Source of the DNA: Candidatus Omnitrophota bacterium
GTDB lineage: Bacteria > Omnitrophota > Gorgyraeia > Duberdicusellales > 4484-171
DNA: 64,000 nt
Direction: 5' to 3'
NCBI GenBank assembly: GCA_043820815.1
Contig: JBDRDJ010000004.1
Location: 14,956 to 78,955 of the forward strand
The notes beneath the pieces are model-generated. The model had not been told where the DNA came from, ran no database searches, and saw nothing but the letters and a program-made list of their open reading frames with translations. Made by a program: the position numbers and the translations under genes. Positions 2,362 to 49,774 of this stretch are shown one piece after another (positions within the stretch are counted from its first letter, which is position 1; each line of letters starts with the position of its first letter).

Positions 2362-3000
2362 ATGAAAGTATTAGATTATAATTTGGATTACAATAAGGTT
2401 AAGAACCTTTATTGGAATAAAGAACATACTATTAAAGATATTGCTGAAAAACTTAATGTTTCTATTTGGTCTTTGTATGGTTTTATGAATAGAAATAATA
2501 TTCCTCGGAGATCGTCATCCGAAGTTAACTATATAGTAAACAAGGGGAAGCCTCAATTTGAAGTCAAAAAACACCTTAATCACCAAGAGCAAATTCTGAA
2601 AATAGCAGGAATAATGCTTTATTGGGCGGAAGGAACCCTAAAGGGAACGTTTGTTGATTTTGCAAATAGTAATCCGAAGATAATGTGTATTTTCTTGAAT
2701 TTTTTAAGAGATATTTGCGGGGTTAAGGAACAACGGTTAAGGGTTTATCTTTATGCTTATTCTTATCAGAATATCGATGCCTTAAAGAGGTATTGGAGCA
2801 AGGTAACAAATATACCTGTAAATCAATTCACTAAACCGTACATAAGAGAAGGGAATTTAAATATCAGCAAAAGAAAATTACCTTTCGGTTTAATACATGT
2901 ACGGTATAATGATAAACGGTTGCTTGAATTGATAAGTTCTTGGATAGAAGAGTATGCAAATCGGGTAGGTGGCGGAGTGGCCAATCGCACCAGACTGTAA
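2362..3000 (+). CDS. HTH-containing protein, possible LAGLIDADG-like (homing) endonuclease
   Basis: 212-aa ORF between two tRNA genes; N-terminal HTH-like IKDIAEKLNVSIWSLYGFMNRNNI; core IAGIMLYWAEGTLKG...FANSNPKIMCIFLNFL recalls LAGLIDADG-like families (from memory, no HMM run); last 38 nt overlap the tRNA-Tyr 5' exon. Confidence 0.35.
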   Translation: MKVLDYNLDYNKVKNLYWNKEHTIKDIAEKLNVSIWSLYGFMNRNNIPRRSSSEVNYIVNKGKPQFEVKKHLNHQEQILKIAGIMLYWAEGTLKGTFVDFANSNPKIMCIFLNFLRDICGVKEQRLRVYLYAYSYQNIDALKRYWSKVTNIPVNQFTKPYIREGNLNISKRKLPFGLIHVRYNDKRLLELISSWIEEYANRVGGGVANRTRL

Positions 3001-3276
3001 AATTTGCAGCGTCTCGCCGAAAGGCGGGATGGAAAAGTGGGTGAATTCAGGGAAACCCTTTACTTTTACAATGTAAAGGGCAATCCTGAGCCAAGCCTTT
3101 GGCATTATTAATGCCATCGGAAGGTGCAGAGACTAAGTACCCACCGCCTAAGGCCTGAGTCAGCTTTAATCTAAATCAGGCTATGGTGATGAGATAGTCC
3201 AAGCCTTGAGGTAACTTGAGGGCACTTGAAATCTGGCGGACATCGTCCTTCGGAGGTTCGAATCCTCCCCTGCCCA
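2963..3276 (+). tRNA. tRNA-Tyr(GTA) interrupted by a group I intron
   Basis: 5' exon 2963-2998 (acceptor GGGTAGG, D-arm, anticodon stem CCAGA + CTGT). 3' exon 3229-3276 (AAA + TCTGG, long variable arm CGGACATCGTCCTTC, T-arm GGAGG-TTCGAAT-CCTCC, acceptor CCTGCCC + A). Joined exons give loop CT-GTA-AA. Confidence 0.85.
2999..3228 (+). ncRNA. Group I (IC3-like) self-splicing intron in the tRNA-Tyr anticodon loop
   Basis: 230 nt; preceded by exon U and ends in G. Exon CUGU can pair with intron GCAG (3006-3009), giving a U.G at the splice site. Strings TCAGGGAAACC, GGCAATCCTGAGCCAAGCC, CGGAAGGTGCAGAGACTA, ACCCACCGCCTAAGGC, GCTATGG and AGTCCAAGCC match the conserved core of Anabaena tRNA-Leu / Azoarcus tRNA-Ile introns as I recall them. 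Confidence 0.85.
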
Positions 3277-3297
3277 TTTTCTTTCGTTCAGCGGAAT

Positions 3298-3413: not shown

Positions 3414-4421
3414 ATGACGAGGCCGTCTGCAGTTACAATTATCGGAGCAGGAAATTGGGGTACCACCTTAGCTGTCTTGCTCTCGGGCAAAGGATTAGGC
3501 GTTTGCCTTCATAGCGTATTTAAAGACCACAACAGCGCATTACAAAATGAACGCCAAAACAAACTCTTTCTAAAAGGCGTAAAATTCCCCTCCAGGCTGA
3601 AAATAGAGCCATCCCTTAAAGATGCCCTTGGCAGTGAAATAATCGTTATTGCTGTTCCTGTCAGATTTATTAATAAAGTTCTAAAGAAAATTAAGTCCTC
3701 ACGGATAAATCTTTCTAATAAAATATTTGTCAGCGTCAGCAAGGGCATAGAAGTAAAATCATTAAAAAGAGTATCTGAGCTTATAAGGCTGGAATTAGGC
3801 AATGTAAAAATTGCTGTTCTTTCCGGTCCAAATATTGCCTGGGAAGTAGTTAAAGAGATTCCAACTGCATCTGTCATAGCTTCTGCAAATAATAAAGTTG
3901 CAGAAAAATTGCAAGTTTTATTCTCAACGTCATCTTTTCGAGTTTATAAACATAGAGATATTGTCGGAATAGAGCTGGCAGGAGCACTTAAAAATATCAT
4001 AGCTATTGCCTGTGGAATTTCTGACGGCCTTGGATTCGGTTCGAATACTAAGGCAGCTCTGGTAACGAGGGGGCTGGTTGAAATAACCCGCTTAGGCAAA
4101 GTGTTAGGCGCCGAAACTAGCACTTTCTCTGGCCTTAGCGGTTTAGGGGATGTAGTTACTACTTGTTTCTCTCCGCATTCGCGTAACAGGACGCTTGGCG
4201 AGAAAATCGGTAACGGCAAGAGGTTAAAAGCTATACTTAAAGAAATGAAGGAAGTGGCCGAAGGAATCGAAACAGTTAAATCAGCCTACTGCTTAAGCAG
4301 GAAATTTGCCATTGATATGCCTATAACCGAACAGGTTTATGCTGTTTTATATAGAAATAAATCTCCTAAAAGGGCAGTTTGTGATTTAATGGGCAGGCCT
4401 CTTAAATTAGAAAAATCCTAA
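3414..4421 (+). CDS. gpsA: NAD(P)H-dependent glycerol-3-phosphate dehydrogenase
   Basis: Track ORF 3216-4421 reads through two tRNA genes; realistic start is ATG 3414 (MTRPSAVTIIGAGNWGTTLA Rossmann motif); GALKNIIAIACGISDG motif. Confidence 0.9.
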   Translation: MTRPSAVTIIGAGNWGTTLAVLLSGKGLGVCLHSVFKDHNSALQNERQNKLFLKGVKFPSRLKIEPSLKDALGSEIIVIAVPVRFINKVLKKIKSSRINLSNKIFVSVSKGIEVKSLKRVSELIRLELGNVKIAVLSGPNIAWEVVKEIPTASVIASANNKVAEKLQVLFSTSSFRVYKHRDIVGIELAGALKNIIAIACGISDGLGFGSNTKAALVTRGLVEITRLGKVLGAETSTFSGLSGLGDVVTTCFSPHSRNRTLGEKIGNGKRLKAILKEMKEVAEGIETVKSAYCLSRKFAIDMPITEQVYAVLYRNKSPKRAVCDLMGRPLKLEKS

Positions 4422-4919: not shown

Positions 4920-5051
4920 GATATTTGATAAGGTTTTTAAGTAAATATTTATGCTTTTATAAGATCTCTCGCTTCGCTCGAGATCAATTCGGCTATGTCA
5001 TTTCTCTTCACCTTCGGTTTGAGAAATGACGGCCTCATTGAAGGAGGTAAT

Positions 5052-6502: not shown

Positions 6503-6979
6503 ATGCCCAGAGGTTTTAGAAAAGTAGGCGCGTGGTGTCATGGTAGATTTAGAGGGTATGGGTATAGGTTAACACAATCTCGCCAGGTTATTTTAGATGT
6601 TTTGAGCAAAACATCAGAGCATTTAAGCGCGGAAGAGATATACCATTACGTCCACAAAATCTATCCATCCAGCGGTATGTCAACAGTTTACAGGACATTG
6701 GAGTTGTTAGTTCAGTTACAGCTGGTTTATAAATTTGATTTTGGCGACGGCAGGGCAAGATATGAGTTAAATAGAGGCATAGAGGATAAAGAGGACCATC
6801 ATCACCATTTAATATGTATTAATTGCCAAAGAATAATTAACTATACTGATTTTATTGATGAAGAAGTAGAATTATTAAAAAGAACAGAAAATGGCCTTTC
6901 TAAAAAGTATAATTTTCAGATTATGAAACATATATTGCAGTTTTACGGATTGTGTGAGAGGTGTAAAGACAAGAGGTAA
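6503..6979 (+). CDS. Fur-family metalloregulator (Fur/Zur/PerR)
   Basis: Winged-helix MSTVYRTLELL, HHHHLICINC…CERC metal-site motifs. Confidence 0.85.
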   Translation: MPRGFRKVGAWCHGRFRGYGYRLTQSRQVILDVLSKTSEHLSAEEIYHYVHKIYPSSGMSTVYRTLELLVQLQLVYKFDFGDGRARYELNRGIEDKEDHHHHLICINCQRIINYTDFIDEEVELLKRTENGLSKKYNFQIMKHILQFYGLCERCKDKR

Positions 6980-7901: not shown

Positions 7902-8011
7902 AAATCGTCCGGTCGCCTGTATATCGGGAAAATTTTTTCAATATTTTCCCGAAGCGGCTCGGACATAATTCGTCCCGACGTTACGTCGGGACTCATTTAG
8001 GAGGTAAGTTT

Positions 8012-8161
8012 ATGAAAATTTGTATCACGTCGCAAGGAGATAGTTTAGATTCAGCGGTTGATTCGCGTTTTGGACGGTGTCAATATTTCATTATTGCCGA
8101 TACGGAATCAGAAGATTTTGAGTCAGTTAAGAATCCTAATATGGATAGTATGGGCGGGTGA
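8012..8161 (+). pseudogene. Truncated second NifX/NifB-like gene (49 codons)
   Basis: MKICITSQGDSLDSAVDSRFGRCQYFIIADTE… stops at MGG* where family members continue for another ~60 aa. Confidence 0.5.
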
Positions 8162-13235: not shown

Positions 13236-13317
13236 TGTTGATTGAAAGGTTTTATTTTTTAAGCAGGGTTGAGGGTTGATAGAAAGTGTATAAGTCACGT
13301 GCTCATTGAAAGATTAA

Positions 13318-13426
13318 CCTGAATAAGATACTTCGCCCGCCTGTGGCGGACTCAGTATCAATTCGCACAGCGGTTTATGTTCGCTCATTTCATTCACTCC
13401 ATAAACCGCGTGCTCATTGAAGGAGG
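13318..13426 (+). promoter_or_regulatory. Repeated two-hairpin 5' leader, copy A (ends in the RBS of the PilZ gene)
   Basis: AACCTgaATAAGATACTTCGcCCGCCTGTGGCGGACTCAGTATCAATTCG-[hairpin]-CTCATTGAAGGAGG; near-identical to 20148-20257. Confidence 0.7.
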
Positions 13427-19870: not shown

Positions 19871-20132
19871 TTGACATGAAGTTTTTAATGTGTTATTGAT
19901 TATGTGTAGTTCTTTTACAAGATGGTTAATAGCGATAAAGGCAAACTTCACGAAAGTGAAGGGCGGCACAAAAGGGTTTATAAGAAAACCTTTTGTGCCA
20001 CCGTATTCCCGTTTAAAAGCGGGATTTACGGAGCAAAGCTAAGAGAACCTAAGGTCAATTAGGCTATGGTAGTCAGCTGCCGCAATGTATATAACTTTTT
20101 TAGAACCCATAGCTTTTGCTATGGGTTTTTTT
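19871..20132 (+). ncRNA. Candidate structured RNA (riboswitch-like leader or sRNA) with its own promoter and terminator
   Basis: TTGACA 19871-19876, 17-nt spacer, TGtTATTGA extended -10. GAAA-tetraloop hairpin TTCAC-GAAA-GTGAA, a 15-bp hairpin GGCACAAAAGG…CCTTTTGTGCC, and hairpin CCGTA..CCCG…CGGG..TACGG. Terminator at 20104-20132; class not identified. Confidence 0.45.
20104..20132 (+). terminator. Rho-independent terminator
   Basis: AACCCATAGC-tttt-GCTATGGGTT followed by a T-run; upstream GCTATGG (20063-20069) could compete as an antiterminator. Confidence 0.7.
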
Positions 20133-20147
20133 ATTTGAGGGCAAATG

Positions 20148-20257
20148 ACCTAAATAAGATACTTCGTCCGCCTGTGGCGGACTCAGTATCAATTCGCACA
20201 GCGGCTTATGTTCGCTCATTTCATTCGCTCCATAAACCGCGTGCTCATTGAAGGAGG
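20148..20257 (+). promoter_or_regulatory. Repeated two-hairpin 5' leader, copy B
   Basis: Same element as 13318-13426 (a few substitutions); GAAGGAGG lies 6 nt before ATG 20264. Confidence 0.7.
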
Positions 20258-32228: not shown

Positions 32229-33041
32229 ATGGACAAAAGAATGGTGAACATAGTAATCGGTCTTATTGTGGGTATGTTTGCGCTATTTCTGATTTGGCAG
32301 CATAACGCAAGGCAGGAAGCGAGAATCCAGAGGCTTATTGAGGAAGGCAAACTCGTTGAAGTCGTTGTCGCAAGGAGAGACATACCTAAAGAAACCACTA
32401 TAACTCAGGATATGATTGAGAAGAAGGTAGTAAAGAAGAATACTTTAAACCCGAATGACTTAAGTGATGTTCAATCCGTTATCGGCCAGTTTGCCGAGAC
32501 CGATATTTTAAGAGGCCAGTATATAAGCGCAAACATGTTAAGGATTTTAACGGGGGCGGATTACCTTTCTCAGACAGTTCCACCGGGTTACCGGGCGATA
32601 ACTATTCCTGTTGACAAAATTTCCGCTATCGAAGGCTTACTTCGTCCGGGAGACAAGGTCGATATTATAGGAACTTTCAGCCTGCCCACAGGCTCAGGCC
32701 AGAATGCTCCCGTTGTTGTCAATGTGTTTCAGAATGTTAAGATTCTTGCGACAAATAAAAACATATCTCCTTATCAACAGTCAACGAGCATCGATACTAT
32801 AACGCTTTCTCTTAAACCGGAAAATGTTAAAGTGCTTACCTATATGTTAGAGTGGAGCAAACTCAGGCTGGTGTTAAGGTCTCCTTTGGATACCGGCGAA
32901 GAGTTTGGGTATTCAGCGGTCACATTTGATAATTTAATGGCGCGCCTGGGGTTTACTCCGCCGCCTCCGACGTCTAAGCAAGATGAGCTTACTGTTGAGG
33001 TTTACCGCGGCTCACAAAGCGGCGAGGAACCTTTGCGCTGA
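32229..33041 (+). CDS. cpaB: Flp pilus assembly protein CpaB/RcpC
   Basis: N-terminal TM, SAF-like VVVARRDIPKETTITQDMI, RcpC-type beta domain; sits upstream of the secretin. Confidence 0.8.
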   Translation: MDKRMVNIVIGLIVGMFALFLIWQHNARQEARIQRLIEEGKLVEVVVARRDIPKETTITQDMIEKKVVKKNTLNPNDLSDVQSVIGQFAETDILRGQYISANMLRILTGADYLSQTVPPGYRAITIPVDKISAIEGLLRPGDKVDIIGTFSLPTGSGQNAPVVVNVFQNVKILATNKNISPYQQSTSIDTITLSLKPENVKVLTYMLEWSKLRLVLRSPLDTGEEFGYSAVTFDNLMARLGFTPPPPTSKQDELTVEVYRGSQSGEEPLR

Positions 33042-33050
33042 TATAAGAAG

Positions 33051-33158
33051 TAACCTTTATAAGATACTTCGTCCGCCTGCTGCGGACTCAGTATCAATTC
33101 GGCCTTATGACTTATGAAAATCAAAGATTTTTATAAGTCATGGCCTCATTGAAGGAGG
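33051..33158 (+). promoter_or_regulatory. Repeated two-hairpin 5' leader, copy C (between cpaB and the secretin)
   Basis: Conserved flanks identical to copies A/B; second hairpin replaced by the unrelated stem GGCCTTATGACTTATGAAAATC/GATTTTTATAAGTCATGGCC; GAAGGAGG 6 nt before TTG 33165. Confidence 0.7.
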
Positions 33159-33164
33159 ATAACC

Positions 33165-34793
33165 TTGAGAACGATAATAATAACTTCTTTCATATTTATA
33201 TTCTCGTTTTTCTCTATTTTTCCTTTCACAACTCTAACAGCTCAAAATTTTCTAAACCTCGAAGAAGATGACAAAGAAATATCGCTTATTGTGGGTGAGG
33301 TTAATGTTTTTAGTGTTTTATCTCCCAAGCGGGCATCTATCCGTAATCCGGAAATCGCTGATATTACTAAGATTTCCGGAAATGAGGTTGTTGTCGTGGC
33401 AAAACAAGGCGGAGAAACCGTACTTACAATATGGGACAAAGCGGGGAAAAACGAATTTTTTATTACTGTCCAGCCCCAGGATCTCGATAGAGTCAGTGAG
33501 AAACTCAAGAATTTGATAAATAAAAATTTAGAGATAGAGAACGTATCTTTTAAAAATAATGAAGTTACCGGCAAGATAATGGTTATGGGAGAGGTAACAC
33601 CTGTTGAGAAAGCGAATATCGAAAGCGTTCTCGAGCCCTTTGCTGCAAGCGTAAATAACCTTCTCTCCTTAAAGGAAGAGAGCAAGATGGTTGAGATTGA
33701 ATGCCAGGTTCTTGAATTGAACAAGAGTAAAATAGACCAGTTGGGTGTTAACTGGCAGGATTATTTGCAATTTAGAGAGGAGCCTTATTCGGCTCCCGGC
33801 ACCACTTCTACGGGAGGCGTCAGCACCACCCTGAATAAAATAAAACCCTGGAGCGCTATTTGGCCTGTGCATTTATGGTCAAGAGACGCACTTACCGCGC
33901 GTATCAATATGATTATTGAAGACGACAAGGGAAGAATCCTTTCCAGGCCTCAGCTTATGTGTTTAAGCGGAAAAGAAGCAAAGCTGACAGTAGGAGGAGA
34001 AGTCCCCTATGTTAGTTCATCGACAACCAATGAGACCGGCACAGGAGTTGATGTTGAGTATAGAGAGTACGGGGTAATCTTAACTTTACAGCCCAATGTG
34101 ATTTCCGGCAACAGAGTCCTTCTTAACGTAAGCACTGAAGTAAGCGAGCTTGACTGGACAAACGCTATCACGGTTTCGAGCATAAGCATCCCCGCATTCA
34201 CTACCCGCGAAGCCGAAACCGTTTTGAATGTTGACTCCGGAGATACTATATTCATCGGCGGCCTCATCAAAAACGAAGAATCAAAAAATATTGATAAAGT
34301 TCCCGGTTTGGCAAACATTCCTATTCTGGGGGCGCTTTTTAGGTCTAAGGATTTTCAGAATGACGAAACCGAGCTTGTCATAACCTTAACGCCTATAATC
34401 AGGGAAAGTAACATTGAAAAGCCCCGGCCGGCTGCCGAGGGCCAGGGGCGTGCTCCGATTTCTTTAAAACCGGTTGTGTTTCCCGAGTACCTTACACATG
34501 ATAAAAACTTAAACGAATATATACTTAAAGTCCAAAACATGATTTTTAAATCCCTTGGCTATCCCAGGCTCGCAGGCGAAGCGGGCTGGCAGGGAGATTT
34601 GAAACTCAAGATTCATTTAAACCAGGAAGGACATATTATCGAGGCAAGAGTAATTGAGTCTTCCGGGTATGAGTATTTTGATAGTAGTGCTCTTGATGTC
34701 GCAAAGTCTTTAAGTCCGTACCCGCCGTTTCCTTCTAGCGTAGAGCTGGAAGACCTATGGATAGACATACCTATAGCCTATAGAATAAAGTAG
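33165..34793 (+). CDS. cpaC: Tad-type secretin (CpaC/RcpA) with a C-terminal TonB-C-like domain
   Basis: Signal peptide; pilus-formation N-domain (LIVGEVNVFSV…VVVAKQGGETVLTIWD); secretin core (VPGLANIPILGALFRS); last ~90 aa (GYPRLAGEAGWQGDLKLKIHLNQEGHIIEARVIESSGYEYFDSSALDV) look like TonB_C. Confidence 0.8.
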   Translation: MRTIIITSFIFIFSFFSIFPFTTLTAQNFLNLEEDDKEISLIVGEVNVFSVLSPKRASIRNPEIADITKISGNEVVVVAKQGGETVLTIWDKAGKNEFFITVQPQDLDRVSEKLKNLINKNLEIENVSFKNNEVTGKIMVMGEVTPVEKANIESVLEPFAASVNNLLSLKEESKMVEIECQVLELNKSKIDQLGVNWQDYLQFREEPYSAPGTTSTGGVSTTLNKIKPWSAIWPVHLWSRDALTARINMIIEDDKGRILSRPQLMCLSGKEAKLTVGGEVPYVSSSTTNETGTGVDVEYREYGVILTLQPNVISGNRVLLNVSTEVSELDWTNAITVSSISIPAFTTREAETVLNVDSGDTIFIGGLIKNEESKNIDKVPGLANIPILGALFRSKDFQNDETELVITLTPIIRESNIEKPRPAAEGQGRAPISLKPVVFPEYLTHDKNLNEYILKVQNMIFKSLGYPRLAGEAGWQGDLKLKIHLNQEGHIIEARVIESSGYEYFDSSALDVAKSLSPYPPFPSSVELEDLWIDIPIAYRIK

Positions 34794-34794
34794 T

Positions 34795-36963
34795 ATGCAG
34801 GCACGCATAATAACATTATTCAGCCCTAAGGGAGGGGTAGGTAAAACCCTTTTTTCTCTTAATATCGCGGTGAGCCTTTCCTCAAAAGCAAGGCGGGTGT
34901 TGTATCTTGACCTCGATTTGGGCGCTCCTCAATCAACCTCGAAACTATTGGGAATTTCGGCTAAGTATTGTCTTTTTAATCTCATAGAACAGTTTGATGA
35001 ATTCGCCCAGAAGAAGCGCAATGTGCACAGCTACCTTTCCCGGTATAAAGGCAATTTAGCCTTTTTGCCTTCGATAACCAAGCTTTCCCAGAGGTCAAAG
35101 ATAACCTCGCAGGTAATAAAGGATTTCTTAAACCTCGTTCAAAACGATTTCGATTTTATCATCATAGACGGCGGAAGCACTTTAACCGACAACCTTATTA
35201 CCACCTTTGATTTCTCAAGCCTTATTCTTCTTGTGTTAACACCTGATACTCTTTCAATTTATCAAACCGAGTGGCTTCTTGATACCCTTCAGAGCATCGG
35301 GTTTCCTTCGCGTATGATAAAAGTAATATTAAACCGTGCCGAGAGTAAAGGTTCTATCAGCTGGCAGGAGATAAAAGCTATTCTGCCTTCCGAAATTATT
35401 GCGCTCGTTCCATCAGAAGGAAAAGTCGCAGGAGTATCTATGAACAAAGGCGTTCCGATTGTTGACTATAGCCCCAATTCTAAGATTTCAAACGCAATTG
35501 ATAAACTTACAAAAGATTTAATTGACAGAGCTGATATCCATATTGAACATAAAGACTTAACCCAAATCCGCCTATCAAAAGACTTAGAAGTCCAGGAAGA
35601 GGAATTGTTCTGGGAGAAAATAGGTTTGGCTGAGAAGACTGAAAAGATAGAGCTTAGGGAAGAGGAAGATGAGGTGATAAGATTCAAAAAAAGGGTTCAC
35701 CAGCAGCTTATCGAAGAACTTGATTTAAAACGCCTGTCTATCGAAGTTTTCTCATACAGCCCTGATCGAATAAGGGAATTGCGTAAGCGGGCAGAGAGAG
35801 TTGTGGCCAATATAATAAGCAAAGAAGCCGGAGGATTCATCTCTTCTCTTGAGGTGCGTAAGAAAGTGACCAAAGAGATACTGGATGAGGCTCTTGCTTT
35901 CGGGCCTCTGGAAGATCTTCTCAAAGACCCGTCCACAACAGAGGTAATGGTTAACAATAAAGACCATATTTACATAGAGAGAGAAGGTAAGCTTTATTTA
36001 ACAACCAAGAAGTTTACCAGCAACGATCAGGTAAGAATAGTTATTGAAAGAATACTTGCTCCTTTAGGAAGGAGAATTGATGAGTCTGTTCCTTATGTTG
36101 ACGCCCGCCTTCCTGACGGCTCACGCGTTAATGCTATTATATCGCCCCTTTCTTTGACCGGGCCGACTTTAACCATAAGAAAATTCGCTCGCCAGCGTTT
36201 TACCATGGACCATTTAATAAATAAATTCGAGAGTTTAACCCCTGAGATAGCCTTGTTTTTAAATGCCGCAGTCAGGGCCCGCAAAAATATCCTGATTTCA
36301 GGCGGAACCGGTTCAGGAAAAACAACATTCTTAAATATTTTATCTGAGTATATCCCTGATGAAGAGAGGATTGTTAGTATTGAAGATTCAGCCGAGCTTA
36401 AACTTCACCAGGCACACTGGGTAAGGCTTGAGGCGCGGCCGCCTAATATTGAGGGAAAGGGCGAGATTACAATAAGGGATTTATTCAGAAATTCCCTTCG
36501 CATGCGCCCTGACAGGATAATCGTAGGTGAAGTTAGAGGCCACGAAGTTATTGATATGCTTCAGGCCATGAATACAGGCCACGACGGGAGTATGTCAACA
36601 ATTCATGCCAACACAACCCATGATGTTTTAATAAGGCTTGACAGTATGATTTTGATGAGCGGCATAGAACTTCCTGTGCGTTCCATAAGAGAGATGATTG
36701 CTTCAGCCCTTGATTTGATTGTCCAGACAGAGCGTTTGTCAGACGGGTCCCGTAAGGTAGTTGCTGTTACAGAAGTTGTCGGCATGCTCGATGAAACCCA
36801 TATAAACCTTCAGGATATATTTTACTACCGCCAGACCGGCGTAGATGATAAAGGAAAAGTTAAAGGTTATTTTACTTCTTTAGGCTATATTCCTACATTC
36901 TACGATGAAATTCGGGCCCGCGGCATTGATTTACCCAGAGAAGTATTCATCTCTAAAGAATAA
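34795..36963 (+). CDS. TadZ/CpaE-like ParA/MinD ATPase fused to a TadA/CpaF secretion ATPase
   Basis: N-terminus SPKGGVGKT (deviant Walker A); C-terminal half GGTGSGKTT, IVSIEDSAEL, TGHDGSMSTIHAN (T2SSE/VirB11 family). Confidence 0.8.
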   Translation: MQARIITLFSPKGGVGKTLFSLNIAVSLSSKARRVLYLDLDLGAPQSTSKLLGISAKYCLFNLIEQFDEFAQKKRNVHSYLSRYKGNLAFLPSITKLSQRSKITSQVIKDFLNLVQNDFDFIIIDGGSTLTDNLITTFDFSSLILLVLTPDTLSIYQTEWLLDTLQSIGFPSRMIKVILNRAESKGSISWQEIKAILPSEIIALVPSEGKVAGVSMNKGVPIVDYSPNSKISNAIDKLTKDLIDRADIHIEHKDLTQIRLSKDLEVQEEELFWEKIGLAEKTEKIELREEEDEVIRFKKRVHQQLIEELDLKRLSIEVFSYSPDRIRELRKRAERVVANIISKEAGGFISSLEVRKKVTKEILDEALAFGPLEDLLKDPSTTEVMVNNKDHIYIEREGKLYLTTKKFTSNDQVRIVIERILAPLGRRIDESVPYVDARLPDGSRVNAIISPLSLTGPTLTIRKFARQRFTMDHLINKFESLTPEIALFLNAAVRARKNILISGGTGSGKTTFLNILSEYIPDEERIVSIEDSAELKLHQAHWVRLEARPPNIEGKGEITIRDLFRNSLRMRPDRIIVGEVRGHEVIDMLQAMNTGHDGSMSTIHANTTHDVLIRLDSMILMSGIELPVRSIREMIASALDLIVQTERLSDGSRKVVAVTEVVGMLDETHINLQDIFYYRQTGVDDKGKVKGYFTSLGYIPTFYDEIRARGIDLPREVFISKE

Positions 36964-48251: not shown

Positions 48252-48434
48252 ATGATGAAAAAAGCTCAAGGCGCGCTTATCGCTATGTTCGTCATTGCAT
48301 TCCTTATCGCTGTGGTCTTTACCTTAGTTGACCGCGCAAAAGGAAAATTCGCTGAATACAACGAAAAGCAGGACAAAAAGATAGCTGAAAAATCAATTGA
48401 AGCGCCCAAATTAGGCAGGTTAAACAAATATTAA
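48252..48434 (+). CDS. Small single-pass membrane protein (q), pilin-like N-terminus
   Basis: AAGGTGG RBS; MMKKA-QGALIAMFVIAFLIAVVFTLVDRAKGKFAEY; paralogue of 49498-49680. Confidence 0.5.
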   Translation: MMKKAQGALIAMFVIAFLIAVVFTLVDRAKGKFAEYNEKQDKKIAEKSIEAPKLGRLNKY

Positions 48435-48598: not shown

Positions 48599-48610
48599 CT
48601 CCCCTCCCTA

Positions 48611-48717
48611 CTATCACTCCGCGAGTGATAGTACAGGTGAGAAGAAATAATGTTTGAAGAGAAGCTTATTTTATTATAAAATATTAAATATATGTTACTA
48701 TCACTCCGCGAGTGATA
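48611..48717 (+). repeat. Two REP-like hairpins upstream of the RAYT gene
   Basis: CTATCACT-CCGCG-AGTGATAG at 48611-48631 and CTATCACT-CCGCG-AGTGATA at 48698-48717, same orientation. Confidence 0.7.
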
Positions 48718-48759
48718 TATAGGGAGAATGTAATAAAGCGGGAAAGGAAGAGTTTCAAG

Positions 48760-49479
48760 ATGGGGATTAACTACGATACAGGAGTATATCACGTTTTTAA
48801 CAAAAGTATTGCCAGATATACAATATTTTCTCATGAGCTTGAATTTTCCCGATTTATTGAGACGGTTGATTATTATCAATTAAAAGACCCTCCATTACGG
48901 CTATCTTACTATTTAGAGCGCAATAAGCCGCTAGCTTCAGAGGCAAAAAATAGAAAAATAGTTCCCTTAGATAAAATTAGCGATAATAAACTGGTTGAAA
49001 TTATTGCTTATTGTATTATGCCCACTCATTTTCATATTCTTCTTAGAGAACTTTGTGAAGGCGCAGCGAGTGTTTTTATGAGGAGAACTCTCAATAGCTA
49101 CACCCATTATTTTAACAAAAAGAATAAGCGAAAAGGGCCTTTATGGGAAAGCAGGTTTAAGAAAGTGATGGTTGAAAGCGATGAGCAATTAGTTCATTTA
49201 ACCCGCTATATTCATTTAAATCCTGTTACTGCCTATCTTGTGGATAATCCCGCTGATTGGGAATACTCTTCATATAAGCAATATTTAGGTGAAACTTACG
49301 CAAAATGTATCGATTGCCAATTTAATAATCTTTTGGATATTACCCCGCAGTCTTATAAGGAATTTTGCCAAGATTCTATTGCTTATCAGAGAGATTTAGC
49401 TTCTATTAAGAGGTTAACTCTTGAAGGGGAAGCCATACCCATTAAGAAAACTAACAATACATTTTTATCAGTAGGTTAA
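48760..49479 (+). mobile_element. IS200/IS605-like Y1 (HUH) transposase, REP-associated tyrosine transposase (RAYT)-like
   Basis: GVYHVFNKSI, YCIMPTHFHILL (HUH), LTRYIHLNPV, SSYKQY; start taken at MGINYD. Confidence 0.7.
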
Positions 49480-49497: not shown

Positions 49498-49680
49498 ATG
49501 AAGTTAAAAGTAAAATCACAGATGGCGCTTATTTATCTTTTTGCTATCGCTTTTGTTATAGCTTTGATTTTTACTGCGGTTGACCGCGCGCGAAAGAGTT
49601 TTTCAGAATATACCGAGAAAAAAGAAGAAAAAGATAAGTTAATGCATGACAACATGACAAATACAACCAGGAACAGGTGA
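49498..49680 (+). CDS. Small single-pass membrane protein (r), paralogue of q
   Basis: GAGGAGG RBS; MKLKVKS-QMALIYLFAIAFVIALIFTAVDRARKSFSEY. Confidence 0.5.
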   Translation: MKLKVKSQMALIYLFAIAFVIALIFTAVDRARKSFSEYTEKKEEKDKLMHDNMTNTTRNR

Positions 49681-49774
49681 TTTATTTTTCTTCGCCCAAA
49701 TACCTCTGCGGACTTGCCGCAGGGTGGTTCATTTTAATAGGCACATTCTCCGGGGCAGAGGCAGCAGAAGAAAG

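Follow-up and report, generated by a model that had tools for sequence, protein, structure and literature searches.

Copy C, a two-hairpin element at positions 33055-33158 of the stretch of DNA analysed here (64,000 nucleotides (nt) of a Candidatus Omnitrophota bacterium, contig JBDRDJ010000004.1, referred to as the window), is one recently inserted member of a modular hairpin cassette family that extends across the phylum. It lies between cpaB and the secretin gene of a tad/Flp operon, where, judged by comparison with homologous loci, it is a lineage-specific insertion of about 104 nt and now the source of the predicted ribosome-binding site of the secretin. The family is undescribed; no copy in the window matched Rfam 15 at the gathering threshold, a search of positions 32950-33250 in E-value mode returned chance-level matches only (at most 18 bits, E of at least 0.6), the motif sequence was not found in the searchable literature, and the published genome descriptions of Omnitrophota that were searched are likewise silent on such an element. 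Omnitrophota are a widespread phylum, mostly ultra-small, probably host-dependent and known almost only from metagenomes, and to our knowledge nothing is known of the control of gene expression in them.

Position and structure of copy C

The 123-nt gap between the stop of cpaB (33041) and the TTG start of the secretin (33165) holds copy C, which consists of two hairpins followed by CTCATTGAAGGAGG, 6 nt ahead of the start codon, and which reads from 33055 to 33158 as CTTTATAAGAT-ACTTCGTCCGCCTGCTGCGGACTCAGTA-TCAATTCG-GCC...GGC-CTCATTGAAGGAGG. Both the gap and the two-hairpin element had been described in an earlier note on the window, and every feature named there was found in its place. The parts of the junction are as follows, in window positions.

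32229-33041 (+), upstream cistron, CpaB/RcpC
33042-33055 (+), spacer past the cpaB stop, TATAAGAAG-TAACC, by direct reading; TAACC recurs at 33160-33164
33055-33065 (+), 5' block CTTTATAAGAT, common to copies A, B and D
33063-33095 (+), hairpin 1, GATACT-TC-GTCCGC / CTGCT / GCGGAC-TC-AGTATC
33094-33101 (+), TCAATTCG block
33094-33100 (+), basal-stem strand UCAAU and the 5' UC of a 2x2 UC/UC internal loop, together the 5' flank of the core unit
33101-33145 (+), hairpin 2, GGCC-TT-ATGACTTATGAAAATC / AAA / GATTTTTATAAGTCAT-GGCC
33145-33158 (+), CTCATTGAAGGAGG block
33146-33152 (+), the second UC of that internal loop and basal-stem strand AUUGA, together the 3' flank of the core unit
33153-33158 (+), Shine-Dalgarno sequence AGGAGG, touching the basal stem
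33165-34793 (+), tad/Flp secretin with a C-terminal TonB_C domain, TTG start

Thermodynamic folding with RNAfold, the check that the note had proposed, yielded both hairpins at -44.5 kcal/mol, compared with -21.8 +/- 3.1 kcal/mol for shuffled sequences (z = -7.35), and 0 of 200 shuffles folded as well. Nucleotides 33094-33095 belong both to hairpin 1 and to the basal stem of the second hairpin, so that the outermost pairs of the two are mutually exclusive. Within the window, CTCATTGAAGGAGG had 4 matches (0.40 expected), the 5' block 3 (0.00 expected) and the combination CAATTC-N25-55-CATTGAAGG 4 (0.01 expected). The inventory comprises four full copies (D, A, B and C), one mini copy and one remnant; the repeats that the note had recognised are thus real, and its count of three was too low.

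The 5' block of copy C is degenerate and stands in place of the GAAUUUGA strand of the family, and its hairpin 1 belongs to a rare sequence class (GAUACU-UC-stem-UC-AGUAUC) limited to the genome of the window and one other (locus L049). The interior of hairpin 2 is made up of GGCC, a UU bulge, a helix of 16 base pairs (bp) with the core CUUAUG/UAUAAG, an AAA loop and the second GGCC; A-U pairs take the place of the usual apical UC/UC loop, and the nearest relatives are the units at loci L083 and L058. This hairpin had been called unrelated to that of copies A and B. It keeps, however, the family core ACUUAUG...AUAAGU, which aligns in register with the family consensus, and copy C, with the frame UCAAU-UC-G...C-UC-AUUGA, scores 65.0 bits on the family covariance model R1, against 62.8-67.3 bits for copies A, B and D. 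Because the CUUAUG/AUAAG core and the GGCC/GGCC outer stem are retained, hairpin 2 of copy C is another variant within the family; the same outer stem is found in other genomes too.

Distribution and covariation of the family

One genome per species was scanned for the exact 21-base pattern TCAATTCG-N28-58-CTCATTGAAGGAG, which gave at least 114 loci. Among the matches listed, all but three chance-like ones belong to Candidatus Omnitrophota or to unclassified or mislabelled metagenome-assembled genomes, and the complete genome of Velamenicoccus archaeovorus is one of them. The first 80 loci correspond to about 57 assemblies, and at least 55 species-level genomes carry the unit.

The core motif is NNNNU-UC-N[hairpin]N'-UC-ANNNN, then AGGAGG, and it describes a unit of about 60 nt with a 5-bp basal stem, a U-A closing pair, a 2x2 UC/UC internal loop, a stable interior hairpin and, right behind the basal stem, the consensus Shine-Dalgarno sequence (A)AGGAGG. 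The closing pair and the internal loop are invariant in the family; the basal stem covaries (UCAAU/AUUGA, UAAAU/AUUUA, UUAAU/AUUAA, UAAGU/ACUUA, CACAU/AUGUG, CGCGU/ACGCG), and the pair next to the UC/UC loop covaries as G-C, A-U or C-G. The usual interior has a CUUAYG/CRUAAG core and a second UC/UC loop, and less common interiors are those with a UUUUYC/GAAAAA core, as in copy D, long perfect hairpins and a hairpin of the type found in the upstream position (L078). Any stable hairpin can occupy the space between the invariant flanks, that of the mini copy being a further example, and the idea that different interior hairpins are set into the same frame was borne out across the family. The stem-UC/UC-stem design occurs two or three times per cassette, hairpin 1 of the window included.

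R1 was built on a 74-unit alignment, which describes a rod-like hairpin with compensatory changes in 9 of the 16 predicted pairs. The fetched loci were searched with R1 and nhmmer, whereby units with flanks differing from the search pattern were recovered. All 16 modelled pairs showed changes on both sides among 121 units, in which 98.1% of cells were paired, compared with 74.5% after shuffling and 18-39% with slid partners; this alignment was fitted to R1 and hence favours structure, the margin being large all the same.

The second hairpin of the cassette (H1, which is hairpin 1 in the window, the core-unit hairpin being H2) is more variable and usually ends directly ahead of the core unit. 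Its loop ranges from 3 to >40 nt, some classes recur across genomes (...UGUCAAGGGU, ...AGUGCUGGGU, ...AGGGCGGGGU), and it ends in GGGU, GGAU, GGGA or GGGG in 99 of 118 units; that of copy C is atypical, with AGUA. In about a third of cases (37 of 125 units by nhmmer) the other strand carries a mirror unit 30-120 nt further upstream, with H1 in common, and no copy in the window has such a mirror arm. Doublets are made up of two different variants, each of which pairs internally and not with the other arm. Mirror units are mostly without a Shine-Dalgarno sequence, and a few doublets serve divergent genes.

A leader peptide encoded in the mirror arm was considered and rejected: the ATG of CAAATGAAG opens open reading frames (ORFs) of only 2-17 codons, is often absent and rarely has a Shine-Dalgarno sequence, so that the "peptide" is a by-product of the hairpin sequence. 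"Empty" modules, with UCAAUUCG joined straight to CUCAUUGA, would be expected if hairpins had been inserted into a pre-existing small hairpin, but 1.3 Mb of sequence yielded no such form.

Insertion at the tad junction and exchange of modules

A metagenome scan for homologues of the secretin gave 80 loci with 33-60% identity. The unit was found before the secretin in 0 of these 80 homologous tad loci, the ten model matches all lying elsewhere. The gap between the preceding ORF and the secretin was measurable in 40 of the homologous loci; it ranged from -11 to +55 nt, the median being about 12, and contained a plain Shine-Dalgarno sequence, whereas the window has 123 nt. It is because of this absence and of these short gaps that copy C is taken to be an insertion. 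The earlier note had named the lack of a conserved structure at homologous loci as what would speak against its claim, and such a lack is what the scan found. The spacer at 33042-33055 may be the decayed Shine-Dalgarno sequence of the ancestral junction (compare TAAtataaggaggacaATG in homologue L115). Since copy C now provides the only Shine-Dalgarno sequence of the secretin, the effect on an internal cistron of the operon that had been proposed for it is plausible.

Copies A and B are identical in 104 of 108 nt, yet stand ahead of unrelated genes. Copy C resembles them closely in H1 (35 of 39 nt alike) and only in 21 of 47 nt in H2; loci L085 and L102, conversely, have an identical H2 before orthologous cold-shock genes and a different H1. 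Because copy C shares H1 and not H2 with A and B, and because A and B are so nearly the same, the modules have been copied and recombined within the genome. What had been read as a hairpin exchanged in place, with compensatory changes preserving the structure, is rather a reassortment of family modules.

The secretin of the window is 100% identical to a 542-amino-acid protein on record from a metagenome-assembled Candidatus Omnitrophota genome. The fusion of secretin and TonB_C domain (33165-34793) is kept in well over 100 Omnitrophota homologues. The gene that follows (34795-36963, +) encodes a 722-amino-acid protein in which a ParA/MinD-like (TadZ/CpaE-like) domain is fused to a CpaF-type secretion ATPase.

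Gene context and ribosome-binding sites

An ORF starts 2-15 nt past GGAG in 114 of 118 pattern-matching loci, most commonly at 5-8 nt, and in diverged units that have a Shine-Dalgarno sequence, 0-1 nt separate it from the stem. Among 103 classifiable units, 82 follow a co-directional ORF at a distance of 17-571 nt, which stays within 200 nt for 68 of them, and 21 follow a divergent ORF, so that an intercistronic site like that of copy C is the norm. From these positions the units are predicted to be located within mRNA.

The proteins encoded downstream in other genomes (108 proteins) match 158 Pfam families, are often small and of typically abundant kinds, and include cold-shock proteins, GAPDH, ATP synthase c, P-II, acyl carrier protein, SpoVG and YebC. 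Because the downstream genes are diverse housekeeping genes, they do not form a pilus or cyclic di-GMP (c-di-GMP) regulon, and the proposal of a leader specific to such functions lost its ground. The unit, in differing hairpin variants, precedes all members of fifteen groups of homologous genes from different species, among them GAPDH, YebC, acyl carrier protein, SpoVG, P-II, cold-shock protein and flavodoxin.

Rfam models applied to the sequence after units lacking a Shine-Dalgarno sequence gave only one unrelated tRNA and no other non-coding RNA genes. In a few units without a Shine-Dalgarno sequence the start codon is just 2-3 nt past the basal stem (L095, - strand, near 6708; L048:1499; L060, - strand, near 4137); the N-terminus of the L095 ORF is like that of ribosomal protein L2, and the L060 ORF is like ATP synthase epsilon. 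These units hint that the hairpin may replace the Shine-Dalgarno sequence in some cases.

Mode of action

The explanation that we regard as evenly balanced between right and wrong is that of a generic cassette acting in cis on the mRNA, where it would insulate or stabilise the ribosome-binding site or would be processed. The cassette would be transcribed as part of the mRNA, and its rigid hairpin, abutting a strong Shine-Dalgarno sequence, would shield the ribosome-binding site from upstream sequence; it might stack on the helix of Shine-Dalgarno sequence and 16S rRNA and might also protect the mRNA segment downstream. The invariant UC/UC loop is probably a recognition site for a protein or nuclease, and RNase III-like processing, for example, would give the downstream cistron a 5' end of its own. 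The outcome would be strong, context-independent translation of the downstream gene. The family multiplies and reshuffles its modules within genomes, and in the window's lineage a cassette of about 104 nt has entered the cpaB-secretin junction, elsewhere a tight one.

The RNase III hairpins of phage T7, R1.1 among them, are 20-25 bp long, have a conserved internal loop and lie between cistrons just 5' of the next ribosome-binding site. By analogy they are the closest working model for the action of the cassette, whose geometry (about 22-25 bp with internal loops, between cistrons) fits an RNase III-type intercistronic site, cleavage being a working model only. The cassette differs from them in its loop sequence, in being cellular and phylum-wide and in having mirror copies without a gene.

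Several observations weigh against an action on the mRNA. The set of Shine-Dalgarno-adjacent units was chosen by a pattern that demands this sequence; of the 10 model matches in 447 kb around tad loci, a sample free of that bias, only 1 has it. Mirror units without a Shine-Dalgarno sequence are paired as well as units with one and mostly have no ORF after them, so translation is not the sole constraint. G-U pairs numbered 60 in the sense and 62 in the antisense folds of 123 units, next to about 2580 Watson-Crick pairs. Use of the signal by phages was considered too and rejected: the canonical pattern was not found in a viral contig collection, relaxed patterns not having been tried. The earlier note had seen in hairpin 2 evidence that the RNA structure itself is selected. 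The 16 covarying pairs in 121 units uphold selection of a stem at this position, and the lack of strand bias in G-U pairs leaves selection on RNA specifically unsupported. Rare, symmetric G-U pairs are as expected of a DNA-level hairpin or of a frequently copied family, and because of them, and of the equally paired mirror units, a function of the hairpin at the level of DNA is still to be reckoned with.

Such a function is the core of an alternative that we consider unlikely but take seriously, namely that the family is a selfish or domesticated DNA repeat, comparable to REP/REPIN or to elements moved by IS200/IS605-type enzymes. The hairpin with its conserved mismatches would be recognised on single-stranded DNA by an HUH/tyrosine transposase or a recombinase, its adjacency to Shine-Dalgarno sequences would reflect target preference or tolerated insertion, and the effect on the secretin would be incidental. 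This would suit the several copies per genome, near-identical at unrelated genes as A and B are, the lineage-specific insertion at the tad junction, the inverted doublets (about 30% of units), the decayed tandem remnant adjoining copy A, and the G-U pairs, which are rare and symmetric on both strands. Target-site duplications are lacking, as they would be for HUH-type elements: direct repeats of at least 9 nt were present at 5.5% of units and 4.0% of a permuted control, with no excess. TAACC stands on both sides of copy C, and nothing comparable was seen at A, B or D. At L138, H1 and the unit are bracketed by a 20-nt duplicate of a tRNA 3' end (AAATCCGGTTGGGGCTACCA; direct repeats at 11-30 and 142-161), several partial copies of which occur at L178:90-260; these repeats look like integration at a tRNA gene. 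Both this duplicate and the TAACC pair at copy C stand alone as single instances.

Also in favour of a DNA repeat, a RAYT-like protein of the IS200/Y1 type is encoded in the window itself (48712-49479, +; detected by tblastn with E. coli RayT). It has HUH (HFH) and YIHLNP motifs and matches Pfam Y1_Tnp with 37 bits and NCBIfam REP_Tyr_transpos with 71.7 bits, under the model cut-off of 80. Its ORF sits between two similar ORFs for small membrane proteins (about 48253-48434 and 49499-49681). It is preceded, however, by two copies of a different 22-nt palindrome, TACTATCACTCCGCGAGTGATA (48609-48630 and 48696-48717), rather than by cassette units, and tblastn with E. coli RayT found no further RAYT-like ORF in 1.3 Mb around >170 units. 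Neither a GTAG-like 5' tetranucleotide (the flanks are (GGGU)UCAAUUCG and CUCAUUGA) nor a pairing of doublet arms into one long hairpin was found, the arms being different and internally paired, and the Shine-Dalgarno spacing is fixed at 0-1 nt. The phylum-wide conservation of the flanks and the retention of the unit at the same housekeeping genes in distant species would be unusual for selfish repeats.

The REP, BIME and REPIN elements of Proteobacteria, which are mobilised by RAYT transposases, resemble the cassettes in being hairpin repeats scattered over intergenic regions, in tens of copies per genome or more, with frequent inverted doublets, co-transcription with flanking genes, no target-site duplications and near-perfect Watson-Crick stems on both strands. 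At about 60 nt the cassette unit is the longer one; its UC/UC internal loops are invariant, and its flanks are phylum-wide, whereas those of REP are conserved at the genus level; it stands 5' of genes, 0-1 nt from the Shine-Dalgarno sequence, whereas REP lie at 3' ends. The missing tetranucleotide, the lack of pairing between doublet arms and the different hairpin at the sole RAYT-like gene found separate it further.

Correia/NEMIS (Neisseria), ERIC, RUP and BOX are structured repeats near gene starts, similar to miniature inverted-repeat transposable elements (MITEs), that alter the expression of neighbours; they have terminal inverted repeats and target-site duplications and are limited to a genus or family. 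The cassettes are like them in being small structured repeats near gene starts, predicted to be co-transcribed, present or absent at each locus in a lineage-specific manner and potentially able to supply expression signals or RNase III sites. They are unlike them in that copy C has no inverted termini, direct repeats are not in excess and conservation is phylum-wide. Membership among MITEs, tried on terminal inverted repeats and target-site duplications, was therefore rejected.

Doubtful, in our estimation, is a more far-reaching reading, in which the cassette would be a phylum-specific general expression signal whose basal stem and UC/UC loop are read by a dedicated Omnitrophota endoribonuclease or a helper of translation initiation. 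The genes that it marks (roughly 7% in the window, often for abundant housekeeping proteins) would be set apart for processing and for strong, context-independent translation; the cassette would thereby be the cell's own equivalent of the hairpin insulators engineered ahead of ribosome-binding sites, and would spread by copy-and-paste. If the family acts as RNA, it would represent a general signal of a new kind, for translation or for processing, and would offer a ready-made insulator from nature; if it acts as DNA, it would be an unusually ancient, conserved hairpin repeat that colonised ribosome-binding sites. For annotation, the cassettes account for many long "empty" intergenic gaps and mark true starts, such as the TTG of the secretin.

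Less probable again is a variant of the RNA-based explanation in which the cassette serves as the operator of a global trans-acting RNA-binding regulator, a phylum-specific protein bound to the UC/UC module that represses or activates many genes for abundant proteins, the secretin having been drawn into its regulon by the insertion. Invariant unpaired nucleotides inside covarying helices, the repetition of the stem-UC/UC-stem design within each cassette, a binding site that would overlap the ribosome landing zone and the recurrent association with particular gene families would all agree with an operator. On the other hand, no candidate protein is known, mirror units without genes retain the same module, and copy C itself is without the apical UC/UC loop.

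We give little credence to the cassette as a carrier of promoters, or to H1 as a terminator, marking a boundary of transcription units. TAAGAT (in the 5' block of the window, as a -10 element) and TTGACA (in the commonest H1 class and in many H1 stems, as a -35 element) resemble sigma-70 hexamers, and where the H1 hairpin is shortest, 17 nt separate TTGACA and TCAATT. Promoter-like sites in copy C, taken as -35 and -10 hexamers spaced by 16-18 nt, are, however, at chance level (3, compared with 1.4 +/- 1.0 expected), with none in the conserved blocks and none with the TAAGAT or TTGACA hexamers, and terminator-like sites, taken as a GC-rich stem with a U tract behind it, number 0. Other H1 classes are without TTGACA, and because the H1 loop varies from 3 to >40 nt any fixed promoter spacing is destroyed; transcription started within copy B would escape the control of the riboswitch terminator directly 5' of it, and no U-rich sequence follows H1.

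The dedicated pilus or c-di-GMP leader of the earlier note, riboswitch- or attenuator-like and controlling an internal tad cistron, agrees with the four full window copies preceding genes related to the surface or to c-di-GMP, namely a HAMP and pilin-like operon, a PilZ gene, a riboswitch-controlled small ORF and the secretin, but is hardly credible given the unrelated downstream genes family-wide, the absence of the unit from the homologous tad loci, a hairpin interior so freely exchangeable that no conserved core resembling a ligand pocket is left, the failure to find a terminator/antiterminator alternative in copy C and the lack of an Rfam match. Sequestering of the Shine-Dalgarno sequence by the 5' strand of hairpin 1 (ACUUC with GAAGG) was predicted for copy A alone and not for B, C or D. 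The cassettes share with the cis-regulatory leaders and riboswitches of Rfam a conserved 5' or intercistronic structure next to the Shine-Dalgarno sequence and strong covariation, and differ from them in their unrelated downstream genes, interchangeable interior and absence from orthologous tad loci; neither coherence of downstream genes nor conservation at orthologous loci was found, and membership among them was rejected.

Other copies and features of the window

The remaining members of the family in the window are as follows.

4957-5047 (+), copy D, ahead of a HAMP-domain gene and pilin-like genes
7965-8004 (+), mini unit AUAAU-UC-G[8-bp hairpin]C-UC-AUUUA-GGAGG; R1 match of 20 bits, E about 0.009
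13290-13312 (+), remnant of a unit, its 3' half in decayed form (ATAAGTCACGTGCTCATTGAAAGAT), directly oriented and just 5' of copy A
13319-13426 (+), copy A, ahead of a PilZ-domain gene, then homoserine dehydrogenase and threonine synthase genes
20150-20257 (+), copy B, in the 5' untranslated region before an ORF of 113 amino acids; 104 of 108 nt identical to copy A

Hairpin 2 of copy D belongs to the UUUUYC/GAAAAA subclass, and its hairpin 1 is maintained through three compensatory pairs (GAUCUC/GAGAUC). The mini unit ends 7 nt ahead of an ATG at 8012; the N-terminus of the ORF that follows is like that of the NifB/NifX family, and the ORF stops after 49 codons as read. The remnant beside copy A suggests a tandem duplication or the replacement of one cassette by another at a single site.

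Copy B is located downstream of a c-di-GMP-I riboswitch match and its terminator-like hairpin, and it is assigned to the 5' untranslated region because it lies between the riboswitch terminator and the ORF. The match itself (19930-20140, +) has 36.5 bits, compared with a gathering score of 35, and contains a large insertion; a strong terminator-like hairpin with a T-run is present at about 20107-20140, and the 113-amino-acid ORF after copy B has no Pfam match. In copies A (13379-13398) and B (20210-20229), hairpin 2 has a 20-nt apical loop, UUCGCUCAUUUCAUUCRCUC, that contains the direct repeat UUCGCUC and is nearly unchanged in units of other genomes (L013, L072). The UCG...CUC motif recurs at up to three nested levels within one cassette.

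The anticodon loop of a tRNA-Tyr(GUA) gene at 2965-3277 (+) is interrupted by a group I intron (Rfam Intron_gpI, 2982-3221, 88 bits). This split gene, which was not called by ARAGORN, lies in the usual tRNA-Thr / tRNA-Tyr / tRNA-Gly / tuf cluster, and an ORF of 212 amino acids (2362-3000), located just upstream of its 5' half and overlapping it, might encode a homing endonuclease.

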